A stretch of DNA of 64,000 nucleotides, from the IMG/VR virus record IMGVR_UViG_3300033076_000783; one strand, written 5' to 3'. The position numbers were made by a program, and so were the translations under genes. The stretch is from a virus. Of this stretch, positions 8,881 to 25,929 are shown piece after piece. The notes under the pieces are model-generated. The model searched no databases and had not been told where the DNA came from. It was given only the letters and a program-made list of their open reading frames with translations. Position 1 is the first letter of the stretch. Each line of letters begins with the position of its first letter.

Positions 8881-8959
8881 TCCTACTACATTTTCCCCCA
8901 CGAAAGTCCCTTACGAAAGTGAGGGATTTTTTTTTGACCACAGACCATCTCCGTCCCGT

Positions 8960-9074
8960 CTACAATAGTGAACGGCTCCGATAGACCATCAGGACGAGAA
9001 ATCCTTCAGGGAATAATGAACGGCCCCGAAGATTGTAATACACCATCGAGCCATTCTTATTTCCCACGGGGACG
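8960..9074. repeat. Complex imperfect palindrome (intergenic repeat family, copy A)
   Basis: AATAGTGAACGGCTCC, GAATAATGAACGGCCCC and CGAGCCATTCTTATTT half-sites plus complementary outer arms CCGTCCCGTC / CACGGGGACG. Confidence 0.7.
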
Positions 9075-9191
9075 TAACCTTACATCTACTTCATTTACGT
9101 TAAGAAAATTTTAACAAAATAAATTTGGTCATATAAAAGAATTAGTATTATATTTGTCATACAAATTCACTAACAAATAAACACAAGTATT

Positions 9192-9380
9192 ATGAAAGAG
9201 TTAATCAATCTTTATTTAGACATTTTCAATTCAATGGAAACATTTGAAAAAGTATTAGTAATCTTTTGGTCATTATGTGTGGTCATGTTTTATGTGTCAT
9301 TCCTTATGATTATAAAGAACGTAATACACGACACTATCAAATCATTCTTTGTAAAGAAACCTCAACCCCAACGATTTTAG
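9192..9380 (+). CDS. small membrane protein
   Basis: 62 aa with a central hydrophobic helix. Confidence 0.4.
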   Translation: MKELINLYLDIFNSMETFEKVLVIFWSLCVVMFYVSFLMIIKNVIHDTIKSFFVKKPQPQRF

Positions 9381-9471
9381 TTGTCATCAGTCGGTTAATA
9401 TGGGTAAAGTCCTCATCAGTAATGGTGGGGATTTTTTTTTGGTAAGAAGAAATGGTTTCAGCCCCTGATCC

Positions 9472-9585
9472 AGAAAATAATGAAGGGCTCGGAGCCGTTC
9501 TTTATTACCATCCGGATCAGCTTGGACCGGGTTCATTTATGAGCCCTTCATTATTACCATCCGGATCAGCTTGGACGAGGGTGGA
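9472..9585. repeat. Intergenic palindrome family, compound copy B with 21-bp direct repeat
   Basis: AATAATGAAGGGCTCGGAGCCGTTCTTTATT and TTCATTTATGAGCCCTTCATTATT, each followed by ACCATCCGGATCAGCTTGGAC. Confidence 0.75.
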
Positions 9586-9614
9586 AAAAATATCCTAAAA
9601 AAAATCAAAATATA

Positions 9615-9646
9615 TTTGGTGGAATAGAAAAGTTGTTATATCTTTG
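9615..9646 (+). promoter_or_regulatory. Bacteroidetes-type promoter
   Basis: TTTGG ...20 nt... TATCTTTG; consensus shared with more than 12 other intergenic regions. Confidence 0.55.
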
Positions 9647-9668
9647 TATCAACAAAATAAATAATGAT

Positions 9669-9884
9669 ATGGAAAAATTAAGAGTTAAAAAATCAGATTT
9701 CAAATCCGACCTCTCATTTAACGAGTGGTGTGAGAAGTACAATTTGGGTAAGGGTTATGTACAACCTACTCAATATTTTCAAGGACACAAAAATTGGTCA
9801 ATGGAACCTATCGGAGTGGCGAAATACATTCACGAAAGTCCTATTGAAAGATTATTTAGAGTTATAAAAAGAAAATTAAAATAA
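9669..9884 (+). CDS. hypothetical protein
   Basis: ORF-track start at 9633 lies in the promoter; first plausible ATG (MEKLRVKK) is at 9669. Confidence 0.45.
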   Translation: MEKLRVKKSDFKSDLSFNEWCEKYNLGKGYVQPTQYFQGHKNWSMEPIGVAKYIHESPIERLFRVIKRKLK

Positions 9885-9888
9885 TATT

Positions 9889-10194
9889 ATGTTAGTAAAA
9901 TTAACTTATTACGGAACAGACCGACCTACATTAGTCAATATGGACAATGTGGAAAGTATCTACCAAGTGTTTGACAAGTCGTCGAAAAGATATTCGACCA
10001 AGATATGTTTTAGTGGTAACGAAAGTTTCATCAATGTTGAGGAAGATTTACAGACGATATTAAGATTGGCTCAAGAAGTCAGTATGGGTAAGTTTCAATC
10101 ACACGATTGGGAAACACCAAGTATAGAAGAAAGAATGGCGGCGTCATTCCAACGTAAATACGATACTCAATTTAATGATACATTTAATTATTAA
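9889..10194 (+). CDS. hypothetical protein
   Basis: 101-aa ORF. Confidence 0.45.
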   Translation: MLVKLTYYGTDRPTLVNMDNVESIYQVFDKSSKRYSTKICFSGNESFINVEEDLQTILRLAQEVSMGKFQSHDWETPSIEERMAASFQRKYDTQFNDTFNY

Positions 10195-10384
10195 TCCTAT
10201 GAAAGAGATGTTAAGTGTTTTTAAAGAACAATGGAACGAAGACCCAAAAGAAATGATTGGTGGGATATTGTTTATGATTGGTTGGTGTGGTATGACATAT
10301 TTCCTACTTTGGTTTGGTGCGACGTTTTGTTACGATATGTGATGTGTTTTGTGTTTATAGTTTAATTGTTAGTTCCCCTAAGAC

Positions 10385-10410
10385 CCTATCAGAAATGGTA
10401 GGGTTTTTTG
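10385..10410 (+). terminator. Intrinsic terminator
   Basis: CCCTATCagaaatGGTAGGG+TTTTTT; near-identical to the terminator at 19870. Confidence 0.6.
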
Positions 10411-10458
10411 TTTTTCGGATAGACCACCCATCGACGGTTATGGACCGGGTAATAATGA

Positions 10459-10630
10459 ACGGCCCATTCGAACTCATTACTAATCAATCTGATGTGAATC
10501 CATTTATAACATTAGTGTGAATTCTATCTGCACAGATCCTGTAAATTAATGAACGGCTCGTATTACACAGAGGTGGGATTGTATTACATGGCCGTACATT
10601 ATTCATTCCCGTCGGAACAGGTGAGATGGT
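10459..10630. repeat. Intergenic palindrome family, copies C1/C2
   Basis: ATAATGAACGGCCCATTCGAACTCATTAC and AATTAATGAACGGCTC-gtattacacagaggtgggattgtattaca-TGGCCGTACATTATTC. Confidence 0.7.
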
Positions 10631-10722
10631 CAAGAAAAATAAATTAAAAAAAAGTTGTAAAAAAGTTTGGTGGGTAAAATATAATGATTATATTTGTATG
10701 AACAATTTAAACAAATACTATT

Positions 10723-11037
10723 ATGTCACAGAAACAAATTTTAATCGAGAACATTAGTGAAACTAATGATGTAAAGAAATTGGAAATGACAATTTCAATG
10801 TTAATGTTTGGTTGGGTTATGGACGACCACAACACAAAAGAGTACGAGGAACTTATTGAAGTATCCGTAAATCGTTTGAACATTCTTATGTTGATACGAG
10901 GAGAAGAACACCCATTACAAAATGTGGATTTGGTTAGAGATAGAGAGAGAATCGAAATGAGTGTGAAGTTGTCAATGATTAAAAGTGTTATGGATATGGA
11001 AAAAATGAATCCATTACACCAAATGAGTATGAATTAA
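10723..11037 (+). CDS. hypothetical protein
   Basis: 104-aa ORF preceded by a TTTGG...TATATTTG promoter-like sequence. Confidence 0.45.
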   Translation: MSQKQILIENISETNDVKKLEMTISMLMFGWVMDDHNTKEYEELIEVSVNRLNILMLIRGEEHPLQNVDLVRDRERIEMSVKLSMIKSVMDMEKMNPLHQMSMN

Positions 11038-11063
11038 ATCTTTTTCATTGTCGTTGTTAAAAG

Positions 11064-11092
11064 GGTAGGACTTTGTTCTACCTTTTTTTTTG
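11064..11092 (+). terminator. Intrinsic terminator
   Basis: GGTAGgactttgttCTACC+TTTTTTTTT. Confidence 0.6.
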
Positions 11093-11109
11093 TCCAAGAA
11101 TTCTTTTCG

Positions 11110-11175
11110 CGCAGATCATGTGAATTAATGAACGGCCCAAGCCATACATTATTCATCAGGGACCAGCTGGATCAC
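11110..11175. repeat. Intergenic palindrome family, copy D
   Basis: GCGCAGATCATGTGAATTAATGAACGGCCCAAGCCATACATTATTCAT with outer arm CTGGATCAC. Confidence 0.7.
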
Positions 11176-11295
11176 GGTGAAAATTCATTAGGAAAACTTT
11201 AACAAAAAAAGTTGACAAAATATTTGGTAAACTAATATTATTGTTATATCTTTACATCAACAAAACAATTATTAATCCTTTAAACATTTAAAAAA

Positions 11296-11736
11296 ATGGG
11301 AACAAGAAGCACTTATCGTTTTATCGAACAATACAAAGACGATAGAAACGACACAAACGAAAATCATTTAGCCTTAGTTTACTTTCAGTACGATGGTTAC
11401 CCAAGTGGACACCCAAGTGAAACCGCGGAATGGTTAGTATCTGGTGAAGTAGTTAATGGGTTCGGAATTGGAGTTGAAAAATTACAATTCAACGGAGCGG
11501 GTTGTTTAGTCGCTCAATTCATATCCAAGTACAAAAACGGAGTAGGCGGAGTTTATGTAAATTCATTAGATAGTAGGGGTAAATGTTGGGAAGACTATCT
11601 TTATGATGTTATTGTGAAGTTGGATAATTCGATTGAGTATGTGTGTTATGAAAACGACGAAACACCTCGTGAAATTTTCAGAGGAAGTCCAAAAGATTTT
11701 CTAACGAAATATAAAAGAGAAGTAGAAGTAGAATAG
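11296..11736 (+). CDS. hypothetical protein
   Basis: 146-aa ORF after a promoter (TTTGG...TATCTTTAC). Confidence 0.5.
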   Translation: MGTRSTYRFIEQYKDDRNDTNENHLALVYFQYDGYPSGHPSETAEWLVSGEVVNGFGIGVEKLQFNGAGCLVAQFISKYKNGVGGVYVNSLDSRGKCWEDYLYDVIVKLDNSIEYVCYENDETPREIFRGSPKDFLTKYKREVEVE

Positions 11737-11759
11737 GTTTAGTGTTATTAATAAGTAAA

Positions 11760-11787
11760 AGGGTGGGATTTTATCTCACCTTTTTTT
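11760..11787 (+). terminator. Intrinsic terminator
   Basis: GGGTGGGATtttATCTCACC+TTTTTTT. Confidence 0.55.
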
Positions 11788-11825
11788 ATGCGCCAAAGTT
11801 TGCGCCGTCATGCGCGCTGCGCACT

Positions 11826-11874
11826 GTGAATAATGAATGGCTTGTATTACACCAACGAGCCGTACATTATTTTA
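11826..11874. repeat. Intergenic palindrome family, copy E (GTATTAC loop insert)
   Basis: GTGAATAATGAATGGCTtgtattacaccaacGAGCCGTACATTATTTT. Confidence 0.7.
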
Positions 11875-11989
11875 CAGACTCAGCCGGGTGAATTCCTCAA
11901 GAAAAAATAATTTAAAAAAAAATGAAAATAAATTTGTTTTATAATAAAATAGTATTATCTTTATACCAACAAAACAAAACAAATACATT

Positions 11990-12211
11990 ATGGTAACAAC
12001 AACAATTAACCCTATCAAAACAAAAAGATTGTTTTGGGGAAAGAAAGGTAAAGAAGTAAGTGGTTGGTTAAAATTAGAAGACGGAACCAAAACACATTTC
12101 TTCATTGACAAAGATGGTACTTGGGAACAATGGGGTAACACTCGTGATAATCTTACGAAGTCGATTCCGTTCCTACACGACCTAACAACATTTCTCCTTT
12201 GTGGAGAGTAG
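11990..12211 (+). CDS. hypothetical protein
   Basis: 73-aa ORF. Confidence 0.4.
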   Translation: MVTTTINPIKTKRLFWGKKGKEVSGWLKLEDGTKTHFFIDKDGTWEQWGNTRDNLTKSIPFLHDLTTFLLCGE

Positions 12212-12287
12212 ACACTCATTTTAATAAGGGTTTAAAGATAATCCCTCGGACTTTTGGTTCGGGGGATTTTTGTTTACTGAAGAAACT

Positions 12288-12348
12288 GTTTTCGCGCAGA
12301 TCATGTGAATTATGAATGGCTCGAGCCGTTCTTTATTTTCTGGATCTG
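12288..12348. repeat. Intergenic palindrome family, copy F (near-perfect)
   Basis: CGCGCAGATCATGTGAATTATGAATGGCTCGAGCCGTTCTTTATTTTCTGGATCTGCACCG; core and outer arms are both self-complementary. Confidence 0.8.
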
Positions 12349-12450
12349 CACCGTCGAAGGTGAAGAAAAATATTTTAAAAAAAACAAAGAAAAATTTTGG
12401 ATATACAGATATAATTGTTATCTTTGTATAAACATTAAAACAAACACATT

Positions 12451-13035
12451 ATGAAAAGGTATGAATTAAAAGTCGTTCAAGACGAAAGTCCGATGAATCC
12501 AAGAACAGAATGGGATAACGTAACAACAATGTTATGTTTCCATAGACGTTATGATTTGGGTGACGAAACACATTATTGTTCCAACAATTATGATGGATGG
12601 GATGAATTCGAAGAACAAATTCGAAAAGACTACAATGTACTAATGTTGAAACCATTATATCTATACGACCATAGTGGGATAACTATTAGTACGAGTCCAT
12701 TTGGTTGTATATGGGATAGTGGTCAAATTGGTTTTATTTTGATAGAAGAAAAACAGTGGGAGAAAATGATGGGCCCCGACATGGATAGAAGTGAAGAAAG
12801 ATTAGAACGTATTATCAATGGAGAGGTTGAGGATTATGATAAGTATTTGAGAGGTGACGTTTGGGGTTTTAAGTTATACGAAGTTAATGAATGTAATTTA
12901 GGACATGAACACAAAGAATTGATTGAGAGTTGTTATGGGTTTTTTGATGAAGACGATTGTAGAAGTGAAGGTGAAAGTATGTTGGAGAGTTACGAAAAAG
13001 AAAGTTTAGTAAAGTCGTCCACATCGGTATTGTAA
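12451..13035 (+). CDS. hypothetical acidic protein
   Basis: 194 aa; conserved-looking YLYDHSGITISTSPFGC block; function unknown. Confidence 0.5.
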   Translation: MKRYELKVVQDESPMNPRTEWDNVTTMLCFHRRYDLGDETHYCSNNYDGWDEFEEQIRKDYNVLMLKPLYLYDHSGITISTSPFGCIWDSGQIGFILIEEKQWEKMMGPDMDRSEERLERIINGEVEDYDKYLRGDVWGFKLYEVNECNLGHEHKELIESCYGFFDEDDCRSEGESMLESYEKESLVKSSTSVL

Positions 13036-13065
13036 ATTTGTTTTGTGTTCATAGTGATAAAATTC

Positions 13066-13092
13066 CCTCGAAGAAATTCGGGGGTTTTTTAT
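13066..13092 (+). terminator. Intrinsic terminator
   Basis: CCCTCGAAgaaaTTCGGGGG+TTTTTT. Confidence 0.6.
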
Positions 13093-13099
13093 TTCCCAC

Positions 13100-13185
13100 A
13101 GATTTCCTGCCGAAGGTTCAGGGTGAATTATGAATGGCTCGAGCCGTACATTATTCATGATGGGATCGGCAGAATCAGGATGGAA
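13100..13185. repeat. Intergenic palindrome family, copy G
   Basis: CCACAGATTTCCTGCCGAAGG...GTGAATTATGAATGGCTCGAGCCGTACATTATTCATG...GGGATCGGCAGAA. Confidence 0.75.
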
Positions 13186-13279
13186 AATCTGTAACAAAAT
13201 TTTAACAAAAAAAAATTAAATAATATTTGGTGGAACGAATTTATTGTTATATATTTGTATTACACAAACAAACACTATT

Positions 13280-13474
13280 ATGGATTACAAAATTTTAACC
13301 TCGTCAAGTCCCGAAACACTTACATCGAATGTAAGATTATTAATCAATGAAGGGTGGAAACCTATCGGTGGTCATTCAGTAGTTGAAGTTCACCGACAAA
13401 ATAGATTTCGTGGTGACCAATTAGTTGATACTATTGTTAAAGTCGAATATTCACAAACCTTAATCAAAGATTAG
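13280..13474 (+). CDS. hypothetical protein
   Basis: Track ORF starts inside the promoter; first plausible ATG (MDYKIL) is at 13280. Confidence 0.4.
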   Translation: MDYKILTSSSPETLTSNVRLLINEGWKPIGGHSVVEVHRQNRFRGDQLVDTIVKVEYSQTLIKD

Positions 13475-13476
13475 TT

Positions 13477-13692
13477 ATGTTTATCGAATTAACCTCAATC
13501 GCATCGGTGGTGAATGATGAAACACTAATGATATATGCGAAATATCAAAATGGTGGTTTTGATGTGGATAGTGGTATTCATATCAAATTAATATCTAACA
13601 ACCTTTATAATTGTTTAAAGGGTATGGATAAATTTATTGTAGACGAATTATTGTATCAAACTAAAATTTATAATTATGAAAAAGGTATCTAA
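13477..13692 (+). CDS. hypothetical protein
   Basis: 71-aa ORF. Confidence 0.4.
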   Translation: MFIELTSIASVVNDETLMIYAKYQNGGFDVDSGIHIKLISNNLYNCLKGMDKFIVDELLYQTKIYNYEKGI

Positions 13693-13894
13693 AAAATGGA
13701 GAATATTATCCCCCGATGGATTTACTATTGAGTTCGGAGTTCCACACTATTCAAGTAGTGAAAAAATGTGGGAGAGTTTTGAAAAATGGAAAGAACGTTA
13801 TAGACAACAAGGTTATTATAGTTCAACCGAATATGGTAGAATACCTTTGGACGAATTGTTTGATTATTGTTTCGTATCATGTTTAGATAATTAA
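13676..13894 (+). CDS. hypothetical protein
   Basis: 72-aa ORF overlapping the upstream gene by 17 nt. Confidence 0.4.
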   Translation: MKKVSKKWRILSPDGFTIEFGVPHYSSSEKMWESFEKWKERYRQQGYYSSTEYGRIPLDELFDYCFVSCLDN

Positions 13895-13906
13895 AACCAT
13901 AAAACT

Positions 13907-14260
13907 ATGTTAAAAGTTAAAGACCACAACAAGTATCGTTTATTCGATTACGAAAATGAAATGTCATACACCTACCAATTGGGTGATGTACTATACAAGA
14001 AATATGAGGGTGACCAAAGTCCCGAGATTGGAGTTGTAATACAGACATTCTCTGATGGTGATTTCCGTACAGATATGTGGGGTATGAGTAGTGAGTCTGA
14101 AGTTCGAGTGGCGACACTGACAGATGTGAAAAATCACCGGCCCGATTTGTTGGGTGATTTAATCATTCAAGTTGGTGTGTACCATATGGAAAATGATAAT
14201 GGTGAAGTCGTGTATGACATAGAGGAGATGACTGATGAGTTTGTTAGATTGACCATTTAA
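13907..14260 (+). CDS. hypothetical protein
   Basis: 117-aa ORF. Confidence 0.45.
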   Translation: MLKVKDHNKYRLFDYENEMSYTYQLGDVLYKKYEGDQSPEIGVVIQTFSDGDFRTDMWGMSSESEVRVATLTDVKNHRPDLLGDLIIQVGVYHMENDNGEVVYDIEEMTDEFVRLTI

Positions 14261-14347
14261 AAATTTTATAACTAAACACTTGATAATACGAGTAATATAT
14301 TTTATATTTTATTAGTGTTCATAAGTGTTTAGTGTTTGTTTAAAGTT

Positions 14348-14377
14348 GGGAACGAGAGTGTCGTTCCCTTCTTTTTT
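14348..14377 (+). terminator. Intrinsic terminator
   Basis: GGGAACGAgagtgTCGTTCCC+TTCTTTTTT. Confidence 0.6.
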
Positions 14378-14410
14378 GTCCGAACCTTCCATGTGCATCT
14401 GAGATTATTC

Positions 14411-14458
14411 AAATTATGAACGGCTCAAAGCCATACATTATTCATTCCCGTCGGAACA
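14411..14458. repeat. Intergenic palindrome family, copy H
   Basis: CAAATTATGAACGGCTCAAAGCCATACATTATTCATTCCCGTCGGAAC; the 3' flank is identical to copy C2. Confidence 0.7.
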
Positions 14459-14536
14459 GAAATCACCGTAAAAAAATTGTCACAAAAAAATAAAATAATA
14501 TTTGGTGGAATGAATTTTATTTTATAATTTTATGTC

Positions 14537-14839
14537 ATGAACAAAACAACTAAACAAGAACTTTGGATGAGGGAATCAACCGAGTTCACAATGTCAGACG
14601 GTTCGACAGTAAATGGATACCGTATCAACTTTGTTAGATTTTTAGAAGAGGGTGAAACCTTGGAGGACATCGACGAAGAATTAGAGTTCGACGAAGTAGT
14701 AGGTGGTAGTGTGGTACCAACTAATGTAGATGAGGACTACAACGAGATTAACGATGATGAGATTGATGATGAGGATATTGATATGTTCAATCCGACATTC
14801 TACATTGGAGGTTTACACGGAGTACCAATAGAGGAATAG
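14537..14839 (+). CDS. hypothetical highly acidic protein
   Basis: 100 aa with D/E-rich tail (DEDYNEINDDEIDDEDIDMF). Confidence 0.45.
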   Translation: MNKTTKQELWMRESTEFTMSDGSTVNGYRINFVRFLEEGETLEDIDEELEFDEVVGGSVVPTNVDEDYNEINDDEIDDEDIDMFNPTFYIGGLHGVPIEE

Positions 14840-14925
14840 GTTTAGAACAAAGGTTGTCTTAAAAGGGTGGGAGTTTCTCTCACCTTTTTTTTATGTCTGA
14901 AGATACCGTTAGATCAACAACAGGT

Positions 14926-14966
14926 GGAATTATGAACGGCCCAAGCCACTCATTATCCTACCTGTG
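14926..14966. repeat. Intergenic palindrome family, copy I
   Basis: GGAATTATGAACGGCCCAAGCCACTCATTATCC. Confidence 0.65.
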
Positions 14967-15194
14967 ATCAGGATCCGGGCTTGAAAAAAAAATTAAATAA
15001 TATTTGGTGAAATGAAAATTGTTTTATAATATTGTATCAGAAAATAACTTTAAAGTTGTTTGACACCAAAACCCTTGAAAACACACCAAAATAAAGGGAA
15101 TAAAAAAAAATTAAAAAAATATTGAAAAAAATTTGGTGGAAAGAAAAAAACATTATATCTTTGTATCAACAAAACGGAATTATTATTAACAACC

Positions 15195-15218
15195 AAAACG
15201 GGGACAGGTAACTGAACA
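15195..15218 (+). promoter_or_regulatory. Conserved 24-nt 5'-leader element AAAACGGGGACAGGTAACTGAACA (copy 1)
   Basis: Exact duplicate at 21080-21103, each placed 10-12 nt upstream of an ATG. Confidence 0.5.
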
Positions 15219-15228
15219 AAAACTTACT

Positions 15229-15975
15229 ATGAACAAGATAATGTCAGGTAAAAAAGTCGGAGAAATTTTTGAAACAAAAGATTATTCAATCTTCAAGTTT
15301 CGTAATGACAATCGTGTGATTGATAACAATCACGTTAAGAAACTTTCTCGTAAGATGAAAGAGAAAGGTTGGTTATCAACTTCAATCGTTACCTTAAATG
15401 GTAGTGGTGATGTAATTGACGGACAACACAGAGTTAAAGCCGCTATGGCGGTAGGTTGTCCAATTCGTTACAAAGTTACTCGTGGAGCGGGTACTGATGA
15501 AATGACCGAAATGAATACTTTACAAAAAAATTGGAGTCCATTTGACCACCTACATAAATTTGTGGAGAGAGGAAATTCAAACTACATTACATTTGATAAA
15601 TTCGTTAAGGATTATCCAATGTTTAAGTACACTGAAATTTCAATGTTGTTGAATAACAATATGACCACAATTAAGAGAGATAGTTTTGAAAGTGGTAACT
15701 ATGTTGTTAAGAATGACAAAGTAGGTCGTGAGTGGGCGAATTACATATTAGAGTTGAAACCATACTTTGAGAAGTATTACAATAAGTCAATCTTCGTGAG
15801 AGGTTTCATCAAAGTAATATCTTCTAAACCCGAGTTCGTGTTTGAGGAGTTCTTACACAAAGTGAAGTTAAGACCAAATATGTTAGTACCTTGTGGAACG
15901 GTGGAACAATATGTTCAAATGATTGAGGACATTTACAACTATCGTAGAGGTGAAAAGGTTAATTTGAGATTTTAG
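15229..15975 (+). CDS. DGQHR-domain protein (DndB-like, ParB/Srx nuclease superfamily)
   Basis: VIDGQHRVKAAMAVG motif; 248 aa. Confidence 0.5.
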   Translation: MNKIMSGKKVGEIFETKDYSIFKFRNDNRVIDNNHVKKLSRKMKEKGWLSTSIVTLNGSGDVIDGQHRVKAAMAVGCPIRYKVTRGAGTDEMTEMNTLQKNWSPFDHLHKFVERGNSNYITFDKFVKDYPMFKYTEISMLLNNNMTTIKRDSFESGNYVVKNDKVGREWANYILELKPYFEKYYNKSIFVRGFIKVISSKPEFVFEEFLHKVKLRPNMLVPCGTVEQYVQMIEDIYNYRRGEKVNLRF

Positions 15976-16003
15976 GATTTTGGTTGGTTAGTAAATAAGA
16001 ATC

Positions 16004-16031
16004 GGGGGACAGAAATGTTCCCCTTTTTTTA
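16004..16031 (+). terminator. Intrinsic terminator
   Basis: GGGGGACAgaaaTGTTCCCC+TTTTTTT. Confidence 0.6.
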
Positions 16032-16068
16032 TGTATTACAAGAAGGTTCGAGCTCAGGAAGGTATCCG

Positions 16069-16093
16069 AATAATGAATGGCCCACGGTTTTGT
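16069..16093. repeat. Intergenic palindrome family, half-copy J
   Basis: GAATAATGAATGGCCCACGG only. Confidence 0.5.
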
Positions 16094-16462: not shown

Positions 16463-16525
16463 TTCCATTTTAATATTTGTTTTGTTAGAGTAAGGGTGTT
16501 AGTAAGTTTTGTTCAATCCCCCAAA

Positions 16526-19146: not shown

Positions 19147-19156
19147 ATAAAAGAAA

Positions 19157-19846
19157 ATGAAAATCATAATCAATAATACTGAATTTGAATACAACATTGG
19201 TTGTAAAATTATTAAAGCGAGAGATGGTGAAGATTGTCCTAAATGGTTTAATCAACCAGATATTTGGGACGACATTGAACCGATAACTTTCAAAGACATC
19301 GCAACACAGATTACTAATCTTGAACAAAGAAGAATTGCGATAAACGCATTGGGTTTAGAAAACTTGGTGAAGGAAGTTAATCCAAAAATGATTGGCTCAG
19401 AAACAATCAGTAAGACCACTACGTTTGTTACACCAGAAGGTGAGTTGGTTACACATAACTTTAACGACACTTATAATTTATTTCAAGTTAGTGCCGAATC
19501 ACTTGGATTACAGAATAGTTGGAATAACACGAACTACTACTACATTCAATGTAAAGACACATCAACGGATAGAGAGTATTTGATTTGGGTAGATGCGTTT
19601 GAAGTGTATAGAACTAATGATGAAAATGTGAGATGGCGTTCAAGTTCTGAAAACTATGGTGAGAAGATAAATCCTATTCAGGCGATTGCTTGGACTTTCC
19701 AAACGACTATTGAGAAAGGTGGTATTGAAAAGATTGTGAGGCAAGGTGATTGTATTCTACTTAAAAAGAATAGTACCGCTAAAATCGGAAGTCAAAGACA
19801 CCTTACTGAAAAAGAGTATAGAGAGTTATTGGTATTAGAAAGTTAA
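19157..19846 (+). CDS. hypothetical protein
   Basis: 229-aa ORF. Confidence 0.5.
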   Translation: MKIIINNTEFEYNIGCKIIKARDGEDCPKWFNQPDIWDDIEPITFKDIATQITNLEQRRIAINALGLENLVKEVNPKMIGSETISKTTTFVTPEGELVTHNFNDTYNLFQVSAESLGLQNSWNNTNYYYIQCKDTSTDREYLIWVDAFEVYRTNDENVRWRSSSENYGEKINPIQAIAWTFQTTIEKGGIEKIVRQGDCILLKKNSTAKIGSQRHLTEKEYRELLVLES

Positions 19847-19869
19847 TAGTGTGTTTTGTTCCCCTAAAG

Positions 19870-19896
19870 CCCTATCAGAAATGATAGGGTTTTTTT
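19870..19896 (+). terminator. Intrinsic terminator
   Basis: CCCTATCagaaatGATAGGG+TTTTTTT. Confidence 0.6.
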
Positions 19897-19928
19897 ATGT
19901 CCACAGATTTCCCGTCTTCTAGAATCTG

Positions 19929-20075
19929 AAATATGAATGGCTCAGGCCGTTCATTTTCACACAGCATGATCTGCGCATGATCTGCTAAAAATTGCGCAGA
20001 TCTTCGCGCTGATCACAGGGACGATTATGACTGGCTCGAGGCCGTTCATTATGTTCCGACGCCGGCAGATCAGAT
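19929..20075. repeat. Intergenic palindrome family, compound copy M (two cores around a GATCTGCGCA...TGCGCAGATC palindrome)
   Basis: CTGAAATATGAATGGCTCAGGCCGTTCATTTTC, then CATGATCTGCGCATGATCTGC...GCGCAGATCTTCGCGCTGATCAC, then GATTATGACTGGCTCGAGGCCGTTCATTATG. Confidence 0.75.
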
Positions 20076-20168
20076 CATGAAAAAATATTTTAAAAAAAGT
20101 TTAAAAAATATTTGGTAAAATGATATAAGTGTTATATCTTTGTATCGAACAAATAAAATAACACTATT

Positions 20169-20927
20169 ATGATTTACACAAACAAAGCAACCGCAAAAAG
20201 ATTAACAGGTATTAACTACTTAGGATCCGTTAATCTAACGACCAAACATCAGAAGGCGTACAAGTACGATGAGTTAACCTACAGTTTGTACCTGGCACCT
20301 GCAAAAATGAGTGGCTACGAAGTTTGTCCCATGAGAACAAAAGAATGTACAAAGTTATGTTTGAATGAATCGGGGATGAACACCATGAACATGAACGGTG
20401 ACAAAATTAATCAGTCACGTATAAAGAAAACTAAATTGTTTTTCGAACACCGTGAATTCTTTGTCAATTGGTTAATCGATGAAATTTATTCAGCTAAACT
20501 TAAGGCAGAAAAATTAGGATACCAATTCAGTGTTCGTCTGAATAATACATCAGATATTCCCCCGACATTATTTAGTGTGAACTATAAAGGAGAACAAAGA
20601 AACATCCTTGAAATATTTCCAATGGTTCAATTCTACGATTACACAAAAGTGTATAACAGAATCGAGTTAACAAAGAAGTATAAAAACTACGATTTAACAT
20701 TTAGTTACAGTGGCGAGAACTTAGACCATTGCCACCAAGCATTGAATAACAATGTGAGAGTTGCCGTTGTATTCAAGAAACTACCTACAGAGTTTTGGGG
20801 TCGTAAAGTTATCGATGGTGATGCATATGACATGAGATACAAAGATGATAAGGATGTTATTGTAGGTTTGAAGTTCAAACGTGTGAGAAACAAATTAGCA
20901 AGTACAAGTAAGTTTGTAATACAGTAA
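20169..20927 (+). CDS. hypothetical protein
   Basis: 252-aa ORF after a TTTGG...TATCTTTG promoter. Confidence 0.5.
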   Translation: MIYTNKATAKRLTGINYLGSVNLTTKHQKAYKYDELTYSLYLAPAKMSGYEVCPMRTKECTKLCLNESGMNTMNMNGDKINQSRIKKTKLFFEHREFFVNWLIDEIYSAKLKAEKLGYQFSVRLNNTSDIPPTLFSVNYKGEQRNILEIFPMVQFYDYTKVYNRIELTKKYKNYDLTFSYSGENLDHCHQALNNNVRVAVVFKKLPTEFWGRKVIDGDAYDMRYKDDKDVIVGLKFKRVRNKLASTSKFVIQ

Positions 20928-20928
20928 G

Positions 20929-21000
20929 ATCACGGGACGGTCACGAATATGACCGGCTCATGTATTACGGGCCGGTCATTTTTAACAGTGTGATCAGATC
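20929..21000. repeat. Intergenic palindrome family, variant copy N (ATGACCGGC core)
   Basis: GATCACGGGACGGTCACGAATATGACCGGCTCatgtattacGGGCCGGTCATTTTTAACAGTGTGATC; a near-perfect 70-bp palindrome. Confidence 0.7.
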
Positions 21001-21079
21001 CCTGAAAAAAATAAAAAAACTTTGAGAAAAATTTGGTGGAAGAATATAAATGTTATATCTTTGTACTGAACAAAACTTA

Positions 21080-21103
21080 AAAACGGGGACAGGTAACTGA
21101 ACA
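21080..21103 (+). promoter_or_regulatory. Conserved 24-nt 5'-leader element AAAACGGGGACAGGTAACTGAACA (copy 2)
   Basis: Identical to 15195-15218. Confidence 0.5.
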
Positions 21104-21112
21104 CTAAACACT

Positions 21113-21661
21113 ATGGGACTAGATATGTATTTGTCTAAAAAGACGTATGTTAAACGTTGGTCACACCAACAAAAGAAAGACCAATTTACTGTAACAGTTA
21201 AAAGAGGGTCAAAGAAGTTTGATAAGATTAACCCTGAACGTGTGTCATACATTGTTGAGGAAGTTATGTATTGGAGAAAGGCGAATCAAATTCATGGTTG
21301 GTTCGTGGATAACACAGAGGAAATCTCGGATAACGTGAAGTACTATGTTACTCATGAAGATTTGGTTAACTTGGTTGACACGTGTAAGAAGGTGGTCGAA
21401 ATTCTAAACAACACTCCTACTAAAAAGAAACAGGTGTGTGTGGGTTGGAAGAATGGTGAGGAGTGGTACGAGGATATAGATGTGTATGACAACGTGGATG
21501 AGGTTATGAAAATACTTCCTCCTACACGTGGATGTTTCTTTGGTTCGGATGAAATTGATAAATGGTACAAGGAAGAACTTGAAAACACTATCGAAGTTCT
21601 AACAAAGGAACTTGAAATTAGTGACAAGTACGATGAGTACGAGTACTACGCCTCATGGTAA
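21113..21661 (+). CDS. hypothetical protein
   Basis: 182-aa ORF. Confidence 0.5.
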   Translation: MGLDMYLSKKTYVKRWSHQQKKDQFTVTVKRGSKKFDKINPERVSYIVEEVMYWRKANQIHGWFVDNTEEISDNVKYYVTHEDLVNLVDTCKKVVEILNNTPTKKKQVCVGWKNGEEWYEDIDVYDNVDEVMKILPPTRGCFFGSDEIDKWYKEELENTIEVLTKELEISDKYDEYEYYASW

Positions 21662-21666
21662 ATCAT

Positions 21667-21691
21667 ATGGGGGAGAAATCCCCCAATTTTT
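21667..21691 (+). terminator. Intrinsic terminator
   Basis: GGGGGAgaaaTCCCCC+AATTTTT. Confidence 0.55.
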
Positions 21692-21705
21692 AAACTTCAA
21701 AATTA

Positions 21706-22005
21706 ATGATCATGGAATCAAGATTATCACTGGCCTTTAAGGACCTTAGAAAACATGGATATTTCGCTCGTCAAAACTTTATGTGTTGTCAATCATGTGG
21801 ATGGGCGGCTGTACCCGAGGGTAAAGAAGAAAAAGTAGTATTCTTTCACAATCAGGATAACGAAGAAAGAAAGAGAGGGTTACCACTTTATTTAGCGTGG
21901 AGTGGAGATGGTGAGATTATTAAATCTGTCTTTGAACACCACGGAATAGATGTGGAGTGGAATGGTAGTGAGTCCACAAGAATACGAGTATCGAATTATG
22001 TATAA
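21706..22005 (+). CDS. hypothetical protein
   Basis: 99-aa ORF with Cys cluster (CCQSCGW). Confidence 0.4.
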   Translation: MIMESRLSLAFKDLRKHGYFARQNFMCCQSCGWAAVPEGKEEKVVFFHNQDNEERKRGLPLYLAWSGDGEIIKSVFEHHGIDVEWNGSESTRIRVSNYV

Positions 22006-22061
22006 AATAATAACAGGGATATCGTTTGGTAAAATGGTATCCTTGTTTTAACTTTGCAAAA

Positions 22062-22448
22062 ATGAAGAGCATTAAAGTTAGATTCAATCTTGGGAGAGGT
22101 AAGAACTATATGAAGTGGAAGGTTATGTATCCTGACAAACCATCCGAGTACTTGGACCCGAGTCAGGTTCAATTGGTTATGACCGACTGTAGACTCAGGA
22201 ACAACAGGAGGACCGCAGAGAAGATTATGAGTGGCCAACACAAGACAGTGTGTGCGTGGGTTCTTTGTGAATCGATAGAATTAAAAACAGATGCGTATTA
22301 CACGGTCGACGATATGGTACCTCTGAAGTATAATCCAAGAGTTACCCCCAATTGGGTGTATGAAGGAACTCGTGGTCCCATGAATGTGGACAACATATAC
22401 TTCAGGTCAGTGGTATCTGATGGAAAGAAATTATTTTGTAAATTATAA
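22062..22448 (+). CDS. hypothetical protein
   Basis: Start adjusted to MKSIKV, downstream of the TTTGG...TAACTTTG promoter at about 22024-22058. Confidence 0.45.
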   Translation: MKSIKVRFNLGRGKNYMKWKVMYPDKPSEYLDPSQVQLVMTDCRLRNNRRTAEKIMSGQHKTVCAWVLCESIELKTDAYYTVDDMVPLKYNPRVTPNWVYEGTRGPMNVDNIYFRSVVSDGKKLFCKL

Positions 22449-22461
22449 AAACCAAATAAAC

Positions 22462-22944
22462 ATGGGTAGAGTGAACAAGTTGACAGAAGGGGTATTCACG
22501 GAGTTAGTGGGTACATCAACACAAATCAGTAAGTATGATGAATTCATCAACAACATCGGTGCGAAACCATCTAAGGAGTTGAAGTCTCTGAAGACGTCAT
22601 ATGTGGATGTAATCAACAAGAATAAGGAGATGTTCCGCAAATTAGCAATGACAGAGGAGGTGATCATGCAGATCAGATCAAGGGACGAGATTATGACCGG
22701 CTCAACTGATGATATCAAATTGTCATTGGTGCGTGAATATCTCTACGCACGTTTCCCGTTCTATAGAAAAGGGATGACCACTAAGGACATCAGGGTGATT
22801 GTGGACAAGTCAGAATTCTGGGGTGAGGATTTAAATATCCTAATCAAGAACAAGGACTTCATGACAAAGGCGAAAGAGAAGTTGTCTCAGGCGATGAGTG
22901 TGGAGATTAACAACAATCTACACGAACTCAAGAAGATCGGATGA
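22462..22944 (+). CDS. hypothetical protein
   Basis: Start adjusted to the internal MGRVNKL to avoid a 65-nt overlap. Confidence 0.45.
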   Translation: MGRVNKLTEGVFTELVGTSTQISKYDEFINNIGAKPSKELKSLKTSYVDVINKNKEMFRKLAMTEEVIMQIRSRDEIMTGSTDDIKLSLVREYLYARFPFYRKGMTTKDIRVIVDKSEFWGEDLNILIKNKDFMTKAKEKLSQAMSVEINNNLHELKKIG

Positions 22945-23032
22945 TCTACCTGTCGTGATTATGACTGGCCTTAAAAAAAATATCTCAAAAAAAATTTGGT
23001 ATATTCCAAAAAATCATTAAATTTACATCGTT

Positions 23033-23338
23033 ATGAGTTTAAGTAAGGAAGTATTGAGATTACGTGACACACTTCACTGTAATATTGTTCAGGAGGCAAC
23101 AGTTAGAAATTGTCTTAATGAAAAGGAATCAGGTGTTTTAAATCTGTTTGAACCCATAGAACTTCGTAACCACATTGTCGACGGTGTATGTTGTAATACA
23201 GGTTTATTACTATACGGTGAGGATAAGATAATTCCTTACAGGTTATTAACGTTGGAGGACCTCGCTGTAATACACAGACAGGTGGTGGAGTTGAAGTCAT
23301 ATGAAGTAGTCATCGATAAAACCCCACAATATGCATAA
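23033..23338 (+). CDS. hypothetical protein
   Basis: 101-aa ORF. Confidence 0.4.
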   Translation: MSLSKEVLRLRDTLHCNIVQEATVRNCLNEKESGVLNLFEPIELRNHIVDGVCCNTGLLLYGEDKIIPYRLLTLEDLAVIHRQVVELKSYEVVIDKTPQYA

Positions 23339-23522
23339 CGATTTATATATTAAGATTTGGGCCTCACAGAAGATTAGTGAGCTTGCCAGGGAATTCGAGG
23401 TGTGTAATACACTCAAGGAATCCTACATCATTGAAGGTAAGGTACAGCTCCTCCACCAAATGTTGGATGAGTTCGAACTTAACAAAGTAAAAGACGATAG
23501 TGTAATCCATAAAGATTTCTAA
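23331..23522 (+). CDS. hypothetical protein
   Basis: 63-aa ORF. Confidence 0.35.
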   Translation: MHNDLYIKIWASQKISELAREFEVCNTLKESYIIEGKVQLLHQMLDEFELNKVKDDSVIHKDF

Positions 23523-23523
23523 T

Positions 23524-24099
23524 ATGAATATCATCCATCTACAGAAAGAGGTAATGGTCAGTGACCCAACCTACAGCGAACCTACGTGGTGTCAAATCAA
23601 ATTGAAGACAGTTAAACCAGGTGAATACTATTCATTCTGTAAAACCCACGACACGGGTTTTGCTGGTGTGAGGAATTCAATGTTATTAGTTGTCCATAAG
23701 GACCATATCAATGACGTCCTACAGTGGAAGAAACATCAGGGTGAAGTGGGTGTTGACTCGGGTCAAGCAGGAATCTTTTCCTATGAGACCTACAGGAAGG
23801 ATGGATTGGAGATGGAAGTTCCGACGATCGGATACGACGGTAGGAATTTTGACTGGCTCGATTTACCTGGTGAAGTTATGCCAGGTGATGATTGGTACAA
23901 GAAGATGTGTAAGTTCACTTTAGCTGAATTGTCATATGGATCATATGATAATGGTATTGTATGTAGAAGTGGATTCGGGGACGGTGGATATGAACTATTC
24001 ACGGCGTCTAAGAGTAGAAAGATCATTGCAATGGCCATTGACTTCGGTGTGGAGGATGGACCATATATTGAATTTGACTGGTATAAAGAATTAGTATAA
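23524..24099 (+). CDS. hypothetical protein
   Basis: 191-aa ORF. Confidence 0.5.
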   Translation: MNIIHLQKEVMVSDPTYSEPTWCQIKLKTVKPGEYYSFCKTHDTGFAGVRNSMLLVVHKDHINDVLQWKKHQGEVGVDSGQAGIFSYETYRKDGLEMEVPTIGYDGRNFDWLDLPGEVMPGDDWYKKMCKFTLAELSYGSYDNGIVCRSGFGDGGYELFTASKSRKIIAMAIDFGVEDGPYIEFDWYKELV

Positions 24100-24134
24100 A
24101 CTTCAGGGTCCGATCATGATCACACTGTAGAATT

Positions 24135-24344
24135 ATGACCGGCCCATTAACCTTCACAGATCCTATGAAAAAATTATTAAAGAACCTCGAGTACTATTGG
24201 GACTACGTCGTAGTATATCTCATGTGTAATCCTCATTATCTCCACAGGTACCATCTATGGATGTACAAGAAGTGGGGTGAAAGATACTGCACCAAGGAAG
24301 ATCTTATGAATCACATCGAGTCTGATCAGGATCCTGAATTATGA
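24135..24344 (+). CDS. hypothetical small protein whose start and stop codons lie inside palindrome-repeat cores
   Basis: ATG is within ATTATGACCGGCCC (24128-24151). Stop TGA is within AATTATGAGTGGCCC (24336-). Confidence 0.3.
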   Translation: MTGPLTFTDPMKKLLKNLEYYWDYVVVYLMCNPHYLHRYHLWMYKKWGERYCTKEDLMNHIESDQDPEL

Positions 24345-24404
24345 GTGGCCCACACTCACCTTCGCAGATCACCTGAACCGATTATGACCGGCCCATTACT
24401 AACA
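24336..24404. repeat. Intergenic palindrome family, two tandem half-copies
   Basis: TGAATTATGAGTGGCCCAC...CGATTATGACCGGCCCATTACTAAC. Confidence 0.55.
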
Positions 24405-24420
24405 TTTAAAACATGACCAC

Positions 24421-24840
24421 ATGTATATACAAACATTGAAACCGTCCCAATGGACAAACCTTGGATATCTTATAGTAGGTATTGTCTTATCACCATTAGC
24501 GGGGGTATCCTTATTAATCCCAATATGGAAATACATAGAGACCTACTGTACCAAGTACGAATTCTACGAGGACCGAATAATATACCGAAGAGGAGTCTTC
24601 AGAGTAGTAACCGACGAGATCCTATTATACAGGGTAAAGGCAATCAACTTAGACGAACCCTTCCTATACAGATTGGTAAGTATTGCCAACATGAACCTAA
24701 TCACCTCAGACAGGTTCGTGGGTAGTATCACCCTAAAGGCCATACCCGTGGGAATAGAATTCAGAAACATCCTAAGGGAGATGGTAGAACACAACCGTAA
24801 TATCAAAGGTGTCAAGGAATTCGACCTATATGATCTGTAG
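24421..24840 (+). CDS. bPH_2 (bacterial PH-like, YdbS/YdbT-type) membrane protein
   Basis: Two N-terminal hydrophobic helices followed by YEDRIIYRRGVFRVVTDEILLYRVKAINLDEPFLYRL, typical of bPH_2. Confidence 0.45.
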   Translation: MYIQTLKPSQWTNLGYLIVGIVLSPLAGVSLLIPIWKYIETYCTKYEFYEDRIIYRRGVFRVVTDEILLYRVKAINLDEPFLYRLVSIANMNLITSDRFVGSITLKAIPVGIEFRNILREMVEHNRNIKGVKEFDLYDL

Positions 24841-24842
24841 TT

Positions 24843-24870
24843 CAATTATGAACGGCCTGTGTATTACACC
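24843..24870. repeat. Intergenic palindrome family, half-copy with GTATTAC
   Basis: TTCAATTATGAACGGCCtgtgtattacacc. Confidence 0.5.
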
Positions 24871-24950
24871 AAAAAATATTTTACGTCAGATTTTTTTTTA
24901 CGGAAGATAAAGGTTATATTTTAATATAAACTTAATAAATAATAAAAATT

Positions 24951-25142
24951 ATGGCAACAAAAACAAACTCAGGTTACACCAACCTTGGTAACAACATCTA
25001 CCAAGTGTCAACAGGTGTAGGTAATCGTTACCGTGTACGTGTATCGATTAATGGAACTCGTTACGATGAGTACTTCACAAGTAAGACTAAGGCTATGAAG
25101 TTCCGTAAAGAACTTTACAACCGTCGTAAGGCAACAGTTTAA
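24951..25142 (+). CDS. small AP2/integrase-type DNA-binding-domain-like protein
   Basis: YRVRVSINGTRYDEYFTSKTKAMKFRKEL resembles the AP2/Arm DNA-binding fold; 63 aa. Confidence 0.3.
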   Translation: MATKTNSGYTNLGNNIYQVSTGVGNRYRVRVSINGTRYDEYFTSKTKAMKFRKELYNRRKATV

Positions 25143-25929
25143 TATACCGTTGTTTTCCACAACATTAAGGTCCGGACCAGTAAGGGGGTTCGGACCTTTT
25201 TTGTTTAACCCTTACGTGTATTACTTAAACAAACCTAATCATTAAAGACCGGCTTCGGGCCAGTCTTATTTGTATTACGAATAGTTGTTACAACAACTAA
25301 ATTATGACCGGCCCATTTACTCTATTACGGGCCTCCCCTATCGGGTCGGCCCTTCATCCCGTATTACATCCCATATGTATAACATCCTATTGCGGGGGAC
25401 CTTCGGTCCCCCTTCATCCCGTATGTATGACACCGTATATGTAAGACATAAATAGGATTATTCTAAGGGACCTTAAAAAAATCCCTAAGGGTTTTTCTAA
25501 AAACCATAGTACTATTTCTAGAACACCCTGAAGGGCCGAACGAAGTGAGGCCCGTATAATGAAATAACTAATATATATGTATATAATATAAATGTATTAC
25601 ATGTATACTGTATGACATTATAATGATATAATCTGGATATTTTTTAAAACTAAGTCGTGATTCAGACAAGGGACAATCCCCCACTAATTAACACTTTCTC
25701 CCACTTTGTTTCAAAAATATGGCTGGTGTATATTAGAACGGGAATTTTGACTTGATCTGACAAAAAGTCTATATATAAAATGATCACGATAAAATATGTC
25801 AAAAAGACATACTAATTTTATGGTGTTTTTAGGGTTAAAAACGGGAATAAATTAGGGGTGTTTTTGTGGGTAATCTGGTACCCAATAGAGTATACGGGCC
25901 TCCCTTCGGTCGGCCCTTCAGGGGAGAAT
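25143..25929. other. 790-bp noncoding island between convergent gene blocks, with UUCG-loop GC hairpins and iterated CCTTCATCCCGTAT / GTATTAC motifs
   Basis: GGGGGACCttcgGTCCCCC (perfect hairpin). GGGCCTCCCttcggTCGGCCC and GGGCCTCCCctatcGGGTCGGCCC. CCCTTCATCCCGTAT twice. AT-rich TGTAT/ATACA mirror repeats. No ORF of 60 aa or more. Confidence 0.6.
25169..25202 (+). terminator. Intrinsic terminator
   Basis: GGTCCGgaccagtaagggggttCGGACC+TTTTTT. Confidence 0.55.

Follow-up and report, generated by a model that had tools for sequence, protein, structure and literature searches.

Inverted-repeat modules between the small genes of an uncultured phage clade are candidate boundaries of mobile early-gene cassettes

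We analysed a 64,000-nucleotide stretch of virus DNA (IMG/VR record IMGVR_UViG_3300033076_000783; hereafter the window), in which the spacers of a plus-strand array of about 32 small genes at 8.1-25.4 kb are occupied by copies of a composite, partly palindromic element. The element is enriched over shuffled sequence, occurs clade-wide in uncultured phages with a core that differs between lineages, and shows no covariation between the two halves of individual copies; the gene cassettes it separates are permuted among relatives, with breakpoints at or in the cores. We favour, with about even confidence, the reading that these elements are boundary modules of mobile early-gene cassettes, which carry a dispersed, lineage-specific, operator-like half-site and are the preferred substrate for orientation-preserving recombination. 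Each module would run in the order intrinsic terminator, GC-rich arm with GATC, one or two 14-bp half-sites, often GTAT(T/G)AC, second arm, and an A-rich stretch with a promoter. The half-sites, single or head-to-head, would serve as a dispersed operator for a phage-encoded DNA-binding protein controlling the early array, and recombination between modules would delete, insert and permute promoter-gene-terminator units without inversion, a role filled in T4-type phages by promoter-early stem-loops (PeSLs). Protein binding to the core and regulation of the early promoters, like any identity given to the protein, are what we infer from the patterns set out below.

Searching the window with the 14-nt core ATTATGAAYGGCYC (ATTATGAnnGGCYC) at two or fewer mismatches returned 37 matches, compared with 1.51 ± 1.30 expected from shuffles, none of which reached 37; chance similarity among AT-rich sequences thus fails as an account of the copies. 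With up to three mismatches allowed, 41 of 42 matches fell within 8182-25314, and the remaining one, at 41734, corresponds to chance level. The original prediction, made by a model from the letters of the window, had placed 20 copies in the array, and all 20 positions proved to be real core half-sites, each at most 25 nt away (8965, 9477, 10452, 10546, 11125, 11830, 12309, 13127, 14413 and 14929 for the first ten; 16070, 16587, 17672, 19930, 20946, 22958, 24132, 24338, 24845 and 25301 for the last ten). Further copies lie at 9013, 20024, 24381, 22690 (within a gene) and 8182 (minus strand), with a degenerate pair at 25242. Besides fourteen head-to-head core pairs there are about nine isolated half-sites, which form no palindrome and almost all lie on the plus strand. 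The consensus of the left half, ATTATGAA, differs systematically from that of the right half, ATAATGTA. Rfam and tRNA scans of the window gave no match, and a search of 185,579 reference genomes did not turn up the palindrome pattern.

The predicted order of parts (terminator, arm, core, centre, second core, second arm, promoter) is right for about 14 junctions. Terminator-like sites number 29 against 9.5 expected, with plus-strand terminators ahead of 12 junctions, and promoters of the Bacteroidota type (TTTG-N17-21-TAnnTTTG) number 22 against 4.1 expected, 12 of them on the plus strand at 8.2-22.1 kb; sigma-70-like sites are not enriched (72 versus 75 expected). The core is no general promoter part, since all seven host-type promoters on the minus strand at 27-60 kb are without one. 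The spacing between right core and -33 element clusters at 51-69 nt, the range seen in 60 of 91 promoters (16 loci). The box TTTTTTATGTCCACAGATTTCC, proposed as a frequent part following the terminators, did not hold up, with two copies at three or fewer mismatches and otherwise loose variants; an assignment of the post-terminator box to DnaA boxes, as targets of the DnaA-domain-IV protein described below, was likewise rejected (34 versus 30 expected; the long box occurs twice). The centre, said to vary from 0 to about 30 nt, does vary in length but not freely: its distribution is bimodal, with 0-2 nt in 9 of 14 elements and otherwise 9-29 nt, always with GTATTAC. Across the genomes compared, the spacing between paired cores ranges from 0 to 32 nt, and the heptamer GTAT(T/G)AC (GTATKAC) is found in 18 of the 19 spacers of at least 7 nt in four genomes. 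In long spacers it is often doubled in direct orientation, one copy abutting each core, and it is about 6-fold enriched in the array and depleted elsewhere. As a separate observation, 35 of the 38 heptamers of the window lie in the 9-25.6 kb array region, on both strands and within genes too, and the other 47 kb hold three, against about 16 estimated by hand from base composition.

A near-identity search of GenBank phages gave no DNA-level match. The DUF932, GP88 and ParB-like proteins of the array retrieved about 110 loci from IMG/VR contigs, many of them 100-330 kb long, as well as near-identical metagenome contigs (98-99.5% identity). The same element architecture is present throughout these uncultured phage relatives, and the core sequence is lineage-specific: ATGAACGGC in the window, ATGACTGGC in L003, ATGACCGGC in L122, TGTTTGGCT in L008, TTGTTTGGCA in L005, TTGTGTGGCA in L025, TTCTGTGGCA in L047, AGTTTGGCG in L053, TTACTGGGG in L042 and TTACTGGAG in L021. 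The general form across lineages is AWWWTG-NNN-GGC, and from one lineage to the next the left and right halves change jointly, for example TTGTTTGGCA with TGCCAAACAA and TTACTGGGG with CCCCAGTAA. GTATKAC is universal in the clade and stays upstream of the homologues of the 11990 gene whatever the lineage core or the upstream neighbour. Both in the window and in L003 the array begins with a lone right core (8182 in the window) and ends with a lone left core (25301 in the window), and in L122 a full palindrome stands at the array start.

Gene order is permuted among 35 non-redundant loci, and core-bounded indels are present, which is the reverse of an identical order in relatives with no repeat-bounded indels. 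The window order 11296-11990-12451, for example, reads 12451-11990-11296 in L003, where the block 15229-16223 also follows 16733-19846. The operon at 17826-19157, which has no internal element, moves as a block, with its gene pairs adjacent in 13-14 of 14 loci. Neighbour adjacency was kept in 12 of 93 locus-pairs across full palindromes, in 53 of 87 where there is no element and in 21 of 21 across lone half-sites, counts that are phylogenetically non-independent. All 1010 homologue matches are co-oriented and none is inverted. Rearrangement without inversion would follow from the cores lying in direct orientation along the array and being the best-conserved part of the diverged spacers.

Comparison of loci at 88% identity or more yielded 13 relevant recent indels. 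Nine of these have a boundary at or in a core. L122 and L124, like other pairs this close, show gain, loss and replacement of cassettes. In a three-way alignment, the L124 junction joins the left side of one L122 element (arm, left core and GTATTAC) to the right side of another; the switch occurs inside the right core AGCCRTACATTATT and removes exactly one promoter-gene-terminator unit. Between L044 and L040 the switch lies inside the right core CCAGTAAT. L063 carries an 850-nt cassette that L005 does not, located between 81-nt direct repeats ending exactly at GTATGAC, with flanks 100% and 99.95% identical. Breakpoints are not confined to one spot: they occur within the right core, just past the left core, directly behind GTATGAC, and within terminators, promoters and 5′ leaders. 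Because the events away from the cores end in terminators, promoters or leaders, the whole module serves as portable homology, with the core as the most frequent site. Taken together, the permuted orders and core-ended indels bear out the parallel that had been drawn with PeSLs, terminator-promoter modules that flank single small open reading frames (ORFs) and mediate modular shuffling. Apparent indels in L113 were rejected as real events, since the scaffolder had inserted stretches of N there at ATTATG repeats.

The spread of breakpoints is also what would be seen if the modules were, like PeSLs, only terminator-promoter homology blocks, with homology as their sole role and the core a passenger kept uniform by gene conversion. 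Crossovers and repeat boundaries indeed fall in cores, promoters, terminators and leaders alike, the core sequence changes from lineage to lineage without a matching change in the candidate binding proteins, and neighbouring copies hold long identical stretches (24 nt for E4-E6 in the numbering given below), with a 49-bp duplication that is polymorphic. However, when orthologous junctions are compared between the window and L003, the cores prove to be the best-conserved part, with identities of 79% and 71%; the arms reach 60% and 51%, the promoter 59% and the terminator 55%. Lineages that have replaced the core sequence still retain the AWWWTG-NNN-GGC form, inverted pairing, GATC arms and GTATKAC. 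Moreover, lone half-sites with GATC arms are conserved between the window and L003 at matching junctions, some of them in spacers without promoter or terminator, and the excess of plus-strand over minus-strand half-sites recurs in four genomes (24:11 in the window; 20:7, 26:12 and 24:12 in three relatives). We therefore consider the passenger explanation unlikely.

The element had been read as selected for a hairpin or cruciform rather than as an operator, on the grounds that core halves and outer arms stay complementary within each copy. We compared pairing within an element with pairing across elements by permutation, using for the cores 33 paired elements from the window, L003 and L122. A left core is no more similar to the reverse complement of the right core in its own element than to that of right cores in other elements (10.21 versus 10.42 of 14 positions, p=0.85, n=33), and the variable central triplet of the core shows no compensation (1.55 own versus 1.57 cross). 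The claim of copy-specific arm complementarity is not supported either, since own and cross pairing are alike by duplex energy (p=0.21) and by a register-aware score (p=0.55). Arms do pair above mononucleotide shuffles (12.07 versus 10.07 ± 0.69), but this arises because they have self-complementary GATC motifs in common, typically GCAGATCATG. The same mismatches (A.A and T.T) recur in many would-be stems because the left and right halves differ systematically. Each half thus behaves as an independent copy of one motif, the pattern expected of sites read by a protein and not of the strands of a hairpin kept by pairing.

A selected hairpin or cruciform, extruded from DNA or formed in read-through RNA and used for processing, replication priming or recombination, would account for the 14 head-to-head pairs, for halves that change together between lineages, for arm pairing above shuffles and for a universal GTATKAC in the would-be loop. 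DNA folding of ten elements gave modest z-scores, from +0.75 to -3.67, the lowest of them in favour of a fold; for two elements one shuffle or none was as stable, and two folded no better than shuffles. The last two, the missing copy-level compensation in cores and arms, the repeated mismatches, the roughly nine conserved half-sites without a partner, the approximately 2:1 strand bias and the lack of an Rfam family for the window all argue in the other direction, and, because they lie between terminator and promoter, the elements should be mostly untranscribed. Selection for such a structure is in our view distinctly improbable. The fallback offered in the original prediction, a regulator-binding or recombination site, is closer to the data, with the part played by a protein in it presumed.

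The arms carry a second recurrent signal. GATC occurs 86 times in the window, against 216 expected under a first-order model, and 38 of these 86 sites fall in the 3.2 kb around the cores; none is found in coding sequence between 8347 and 20168. Enrichment in the arms is about 4-fold above composition and recurs in L003, L008, L021, L022, L025 and L042, whereas GATC is missing altogether from 20 kb of L012, L019 and L053. At orthologous junctions GATC is kept in the arms despite divergence of the remainder of the arm. By contrast, an enrichment of GCGC in the arms (11 of 12 copies) is largely explained by their roughly 50% G+C, which the GATC enrichment is not. The placement of GATC in subterminal arms resembles the Dam-regulated ends of IS10 and IS50, a likeness that would suit the site-specific exchange discussed next. 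A C5 methyltransferase gene (PF00145) lies at 59033-60022 and a second methyltransferase gene at 56360-56974. L025, for its part, contains no CATG.

The cores might instead be recognised by a dedicated recombinase or transposase that exchanges cassettes site-specifically, with GTATKAC as the place where it crosses over or which it targets; integron attC sites, the ends of IS200/IS605 and REP elements, or cassettes with terminal inverted repeats would be possible analogues. Each cassette is bounded by a right-type core on its 5′ side and a left-type core on its 3′ side, which are inverted repeats of each other, and the lone right core and lone left core at the two ends of the window and L003 arrays fit such a scheme. 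So do the GTATTAC that abuts the outer core face in direct orientation, often twice, its enrichment in the array, the L122/L124 indel of exactly one right-core-to-left-core unit, and the repeat ending exactly at GTATGAC. Breakpoints, however, occupy no fixed position, all homologue matches are co-oriented, the cassettes have their own promoters, the L122 array begins with a full palindrome, and no reference genome of the set searched contains the element. In addition, no integrase, transposase or HUH family is among the top 25 Pfam/PHROG families listed for the 104 ORFs of the 64-kb window. We rate site-specific exchange as just as improbable as the hairpin.

Several related assignments were also tried and rejected. 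GTATTAC equals the last 7 nt of the circovirus TAGTATTAC; a HUH/Rep nick site was set aside since no HUH or Y1 family is among the top 25 Pfam/PHROG families listed. A role of the core as promoter for a phage RNA polymerase was rejected, as there are no copies outside the array and the array has host-type promoters. An origin from host REP-like sequences fails on the absence of the pattern from the reference genomes and of Y1_Tnp among the families listed. Against a MITE or terminal-inverted-repeat transposon stand the uniform orientation of the 1010 matches, the confinement of copies to one array and the lack of a match in the 185,579 reference genomes, and CRISPR-repeat mimicry was dismissed for want of a host match and for an unsuitable copy number and form.

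Three genes of the window encode candidate factors. A plus-strand ParB/KorB/Noc-like gene at 15229-15975 (phrog_12305, E = 8e-26) encodes a candidate DNA-binding protein, for which AlphaFold2 gave a pLDDT of 90.6 and Foldseek a probability of 1.0 to ParB-CTP, KorB and Noc structures. The best Foldseek matches were 7bnk, 6sdk, 8qa9 and 7ng0, at TM-scores of only 0.3-0.38 because the domains are oriented differently. The model shows a ParB fold with a helical DNA-binding domain, and the protein has a CTP-binding-type GxxRxxA box at G65-A72 (GQHRVKAA). The second candidate is a 63-residue basic protein (24951-25142). The third, encoded on the minus strand at 38206-38571, is a stand-alone DnaA-domain-IV protein of 121 residues (PF08299, E = 6e-18) with the motif GGRDHTTAIHS.

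A number of observations weigh against boundary modules with a protein-read operator. Although their cores differ, the lineages share a ParB-like protein at 60-83% identity, which is therefore unlikely to set core specificity but might recognise a part of the element that is universal. In the 63-residue protein the beta-sheet hardly varies, and neither does the segment SYRVRVSVNGTKYSKNFS. Both were accordingly rejected as specificity determinants, and none of the three candidates co-varies with the core. The cores of full palindromes sit about 95 nt upstream of the start site, a long distance for a simple repressor. Lineage-specific cores could also arise by concerted evolution through gene conversion, with no protein involved, and the joint change of both halves between lineages is what a hairpin would predict as well. 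Eight of the ten folded elements fold better than most shuffles (z from -1.7 to -3.7). Finally, rearrangements survive solely at cassette boundaries whatever the mechanism, and the shared ancestry of the loci behind the adjacency counts reduces what those counts can carry.

Literature searches found no description of this element family, and none of its nearest analogues, the PeSLs, stoperators, P1 C1 operators and KorB operators, combines all the parts seen here. PeSLs consist of a terminator stem-loop and an early host-type promoter repeated in a plastic genome region, and their indels are explained by recombination between tandem copies, with excised mini-circles shown (PMC2839356, PMC4122927). 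As with PeSLs, our element is a composite repeat in a plastic region of small ORFs without known function, varies in sequence between phage groups, and flanks genes that differ between close relatives through indels attributable to recombination between tandem copies. Unlike it, PeSLs have no 60-200-bp unit of inverted 14-bp cores, GATC arms and GTATKAC between terminator and promoter. Their promoters are of the sigma-70 type and their hosts T4-type phages, whereas the promoters here are of the Bacteroidota -33/-7 type in a clade unrelated to T4. Because no GenBank phage is similar at the DNA level, the promoters are of Bacteroidota type and sigma-70 sites are not enriched, we regard the element as an analogue of PeSLs and not a member.

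The stoperators and operators of Cluster A mycobacteriophages, which are temperate, are bound by a known monomeric repressor of the L5 gp71 type (PMC9283540, PMC6550527). They too number more than 20 and are asymmetric, 13-14 bp long and located in short intergenic spaces, with an orientation that correlates with transcription and a sequence specific to the phage group. However, stoperators are single and their orientation bias is near-absolute, while the cores are mostly head-to-head pairs with a 2:1 bias, and no repressor or integrase is among the families listed for the window. Phage P1 has 22 dispersed asymmetric 17-bp C1 operators (PMC8546580). It is a large phage with a ParB-type protein, and its operators are, like the cores, single or in inverted pairs, but C1 sites overlap promoters and have a known binder; paired cores are set back from the start by about 95 nt, and the sequences are unrelated. 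Some of the P1 C1 sites are overlapping inverted pairs. The OB operators of plasmid RK2 are read by KorB, a ParB-family CTP-dependent sliding clamp (PMC11790492). These are scattered palindromic sites, some of them tens to hundreds of base pairs upstream of the promoters controlled, and the array has its own ParB/KorB-like gene. Nevertheless, OB is one fixed 13-bp palindrome, and the single fixed-spacing palindrome of the ParB-parS/KorB type was not found here: spacing is 0-32 nt, half-sites stand alone, and the core changes while the ParB-like protein is conserved.

Integron attC sites share with the element an imperfect palindrome with conserved outer boxes and a variable centre, present once per co-oriented small cassette. 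They differ in that most cassettes here, unlike the promoter-less integron cassettes, have their own promoter and terminator, crossovers occur at no one fixed point, the core is unrelated to RYYYAAC/GTTRRRY, no IntI-type integrase is among the families listed, and no attI site was seen. An integron-like phage cassette system is a still more speculative possibility than a site-specific crossover as such. In it, units bounded by inverted 14-bp cores would be moved by a site-specific enzyme acting at the universal GTAT(T/G)AC, the GATC clusters would form a methylation-sensitive switch, and an accessory part would fall to the ParB-like CTPase or to the small basic protein. If true, large Bacteroidota phages would possess machinery dedicated to swapping early or anti-defence genes.

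The small early genes of large phages show the fastest turnover of anti-defence and host-takeover functions, and their exchange is known in detail only from the PeSLs of T4-type phages. Boundary modules of the kind we favour would represent the same solution in an unrelated, uncultured clade with Bacteroidota-type promoters, with breakpoints resolved to the nucleotide and with an added layer over PeSLs in the lineage-specific operator-like inverted repeat, the clade-wide GTATKAC and the GATC clusters. The cores offer a handle for delimiting cassettes in metagenomic phages, may help to predict co-regulated early genes and point to the factor that reads them. They also explain assembly breaks and mis-scaffolding at these sites.

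The individual junctions are as follows, with all elements from E1 onwards on the plus strand. Ahead of the array, at 8182-8206 on the minus strand, a lone right-type core GGGCCGTTCTTTAT with a GATC arm lies upstream of the first promoter (8282-8313), and likewise in L003. E1 (8940-9075) has left cores at 8965 and 9013 and a right core at 9048, with a 21-nt centre bearing GTATTAC on the minus strand. E2 (9455-9580) comprises a left core at 9477 and right cores at 9492 and, in duplicate, 9541; the 49-bp tandem duplication of right core and arm (9492-9540) is not in L114, which is otherwise 97-98% identical. The composite E3 (10418-10632) has a lone left core at 10452, then a left core at 10546, two GTATTAC and a right core at 10589, and its long outer arms pair in the fold. 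In E4 (11100-11180) the cores at 11125 (left) and 11140 (right) are accompanied by a GCAGATCATG arm, and in E5 (11790-11895; fold z = -3.67) those at 11830 and 11857 enclose a GTATTAC centre next to a GCGC-rich left arm. The two cores abut in E6 (12285-12360; left 12309, right 12323; GCAGATC and GATCTGC arms) and in E7 (13100-13182; left 13127, right 13141; CTGCCGA and TCGGCAG arms; fold z = -3.33). E8 (14380-14460), where the metagenome scaffold L113 broke, has a left core at 14413 and a degenerate right core at 14429. E9 (14905-14982; left 14929, right 14944; GATC arms) is followed at 14984-15170 by a tandem pair of promoter modules, 129 nt apart, upstream of the ParB-like gene, an arrangement also present in L003.

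A lone left core at 16070 forms E10 (16040-16095), with GTATTAC at 16033 and a lone left core at the same place in L003. E11 (16562-16645; left 16587, right 16602) has GATC in both arms, kept in L003 despite arm divergence, and E12 (17655-17742) has a GTATTAC centre between cores at 17672 and 17698. Two palindromes, 19930/19944 and 20024/20039, make up E13 (19900-20082), with nested GCAGATC/GATCTGC repeats between them. The cores of E14 (20926-21004; left 20946, right 20969; fold z = -2.6) flank a GTATTAC centre and are flanked by GATC arms. One half-site, with a GATCAGATC arm, lies at 22662-22703 inside the coding sequence of the 22462-22944 gene. E15 (22930-22971), conserved in L003, consists of two GATC and a lone left core at 22958 that ends 24 nt upstream of the -33 TTTG. 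E16 (24107-24165) has GATC arms and a lone left core at 24132 without promoter or terminator, the ATG at 24165 following 20 nt downstream. E17 (24320-24394) carries lone left cores in tandem at 24338 and 24381 with GATC arms, and E18 (24828-24870) a lone left core at 24845 and then GTATTAC, the same as in L003. The array end (25218-25330) reads GTATTAC, the degenerate palindrome at 25242, GTATTAC, a small hairpin, the lone left core at 25301 and TATTAC.

Some observations concern the same spacers without being part of the element. L113, a public metagenome scaffold of the same phage, has 100-N gaps at 2816-2915 and 7580-7679 (window 8976-9017 and 13678-14413), where ATTATG(A) repeats stand. 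A stretch of 735 bp carrying two genes is concealed by one of these gaps, and the repeats break or mislead short-read assembly. At 14271-14333, in the 3′ untranslated region after the 13907 gene and ahead of its terminator, there is a 30-nt inverted repeat; a similar segment of L003, with terminator, lies upstream of the element of the DUF932 gene, which indicates that 3′ modules also move. An identical 21-nt leader, ACGGGGACAGGTAACTGAACA, occurs at 15198-15218 and 21083-21103, upstream of the ParB-like and 21113 genes (0 expected), and L003 has a near-identical leader (...GGTTTACTGAACA) before both homologues. This leader could be a shared control site at the translational or RNA level.

The array is bordered by two unusual regions. 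At 8080-8182, just before the first array core, lies a region of G-runs and C-runs, ccccctatataaggggggatacgggaaggggggagggggtaccctacatagggggt, that is conserved in L003. Between the plus-strand array and the minus-strand genes, an 800-nt non-coding region (25150-25950) contains GC-rich hairpins, each followed by CCCTTCATCCCGTAT(G)TAKAC, as well as six GTATKAC motifs and a 33-nt inverted repeat (25526-25558 and 25891-25923, 94% complementary). Its counterpart in L003 and L122 has cores of the type of another lineage (GCCAGACAA ... GTATTAC ... TTGTTTGGCA). The region may function as an origin, as a centromere-like site or as a small-RNA cluster. Beyond it on the minus strand, an HNH endonuclease gene (28271-29674; phrog_374, E = 5e-77) lies beside a T5orf172/MUG113 (GIY-YIG-like) gene (29738-30472), and this pair, just outside the array, may be free-standing homing nucleases.

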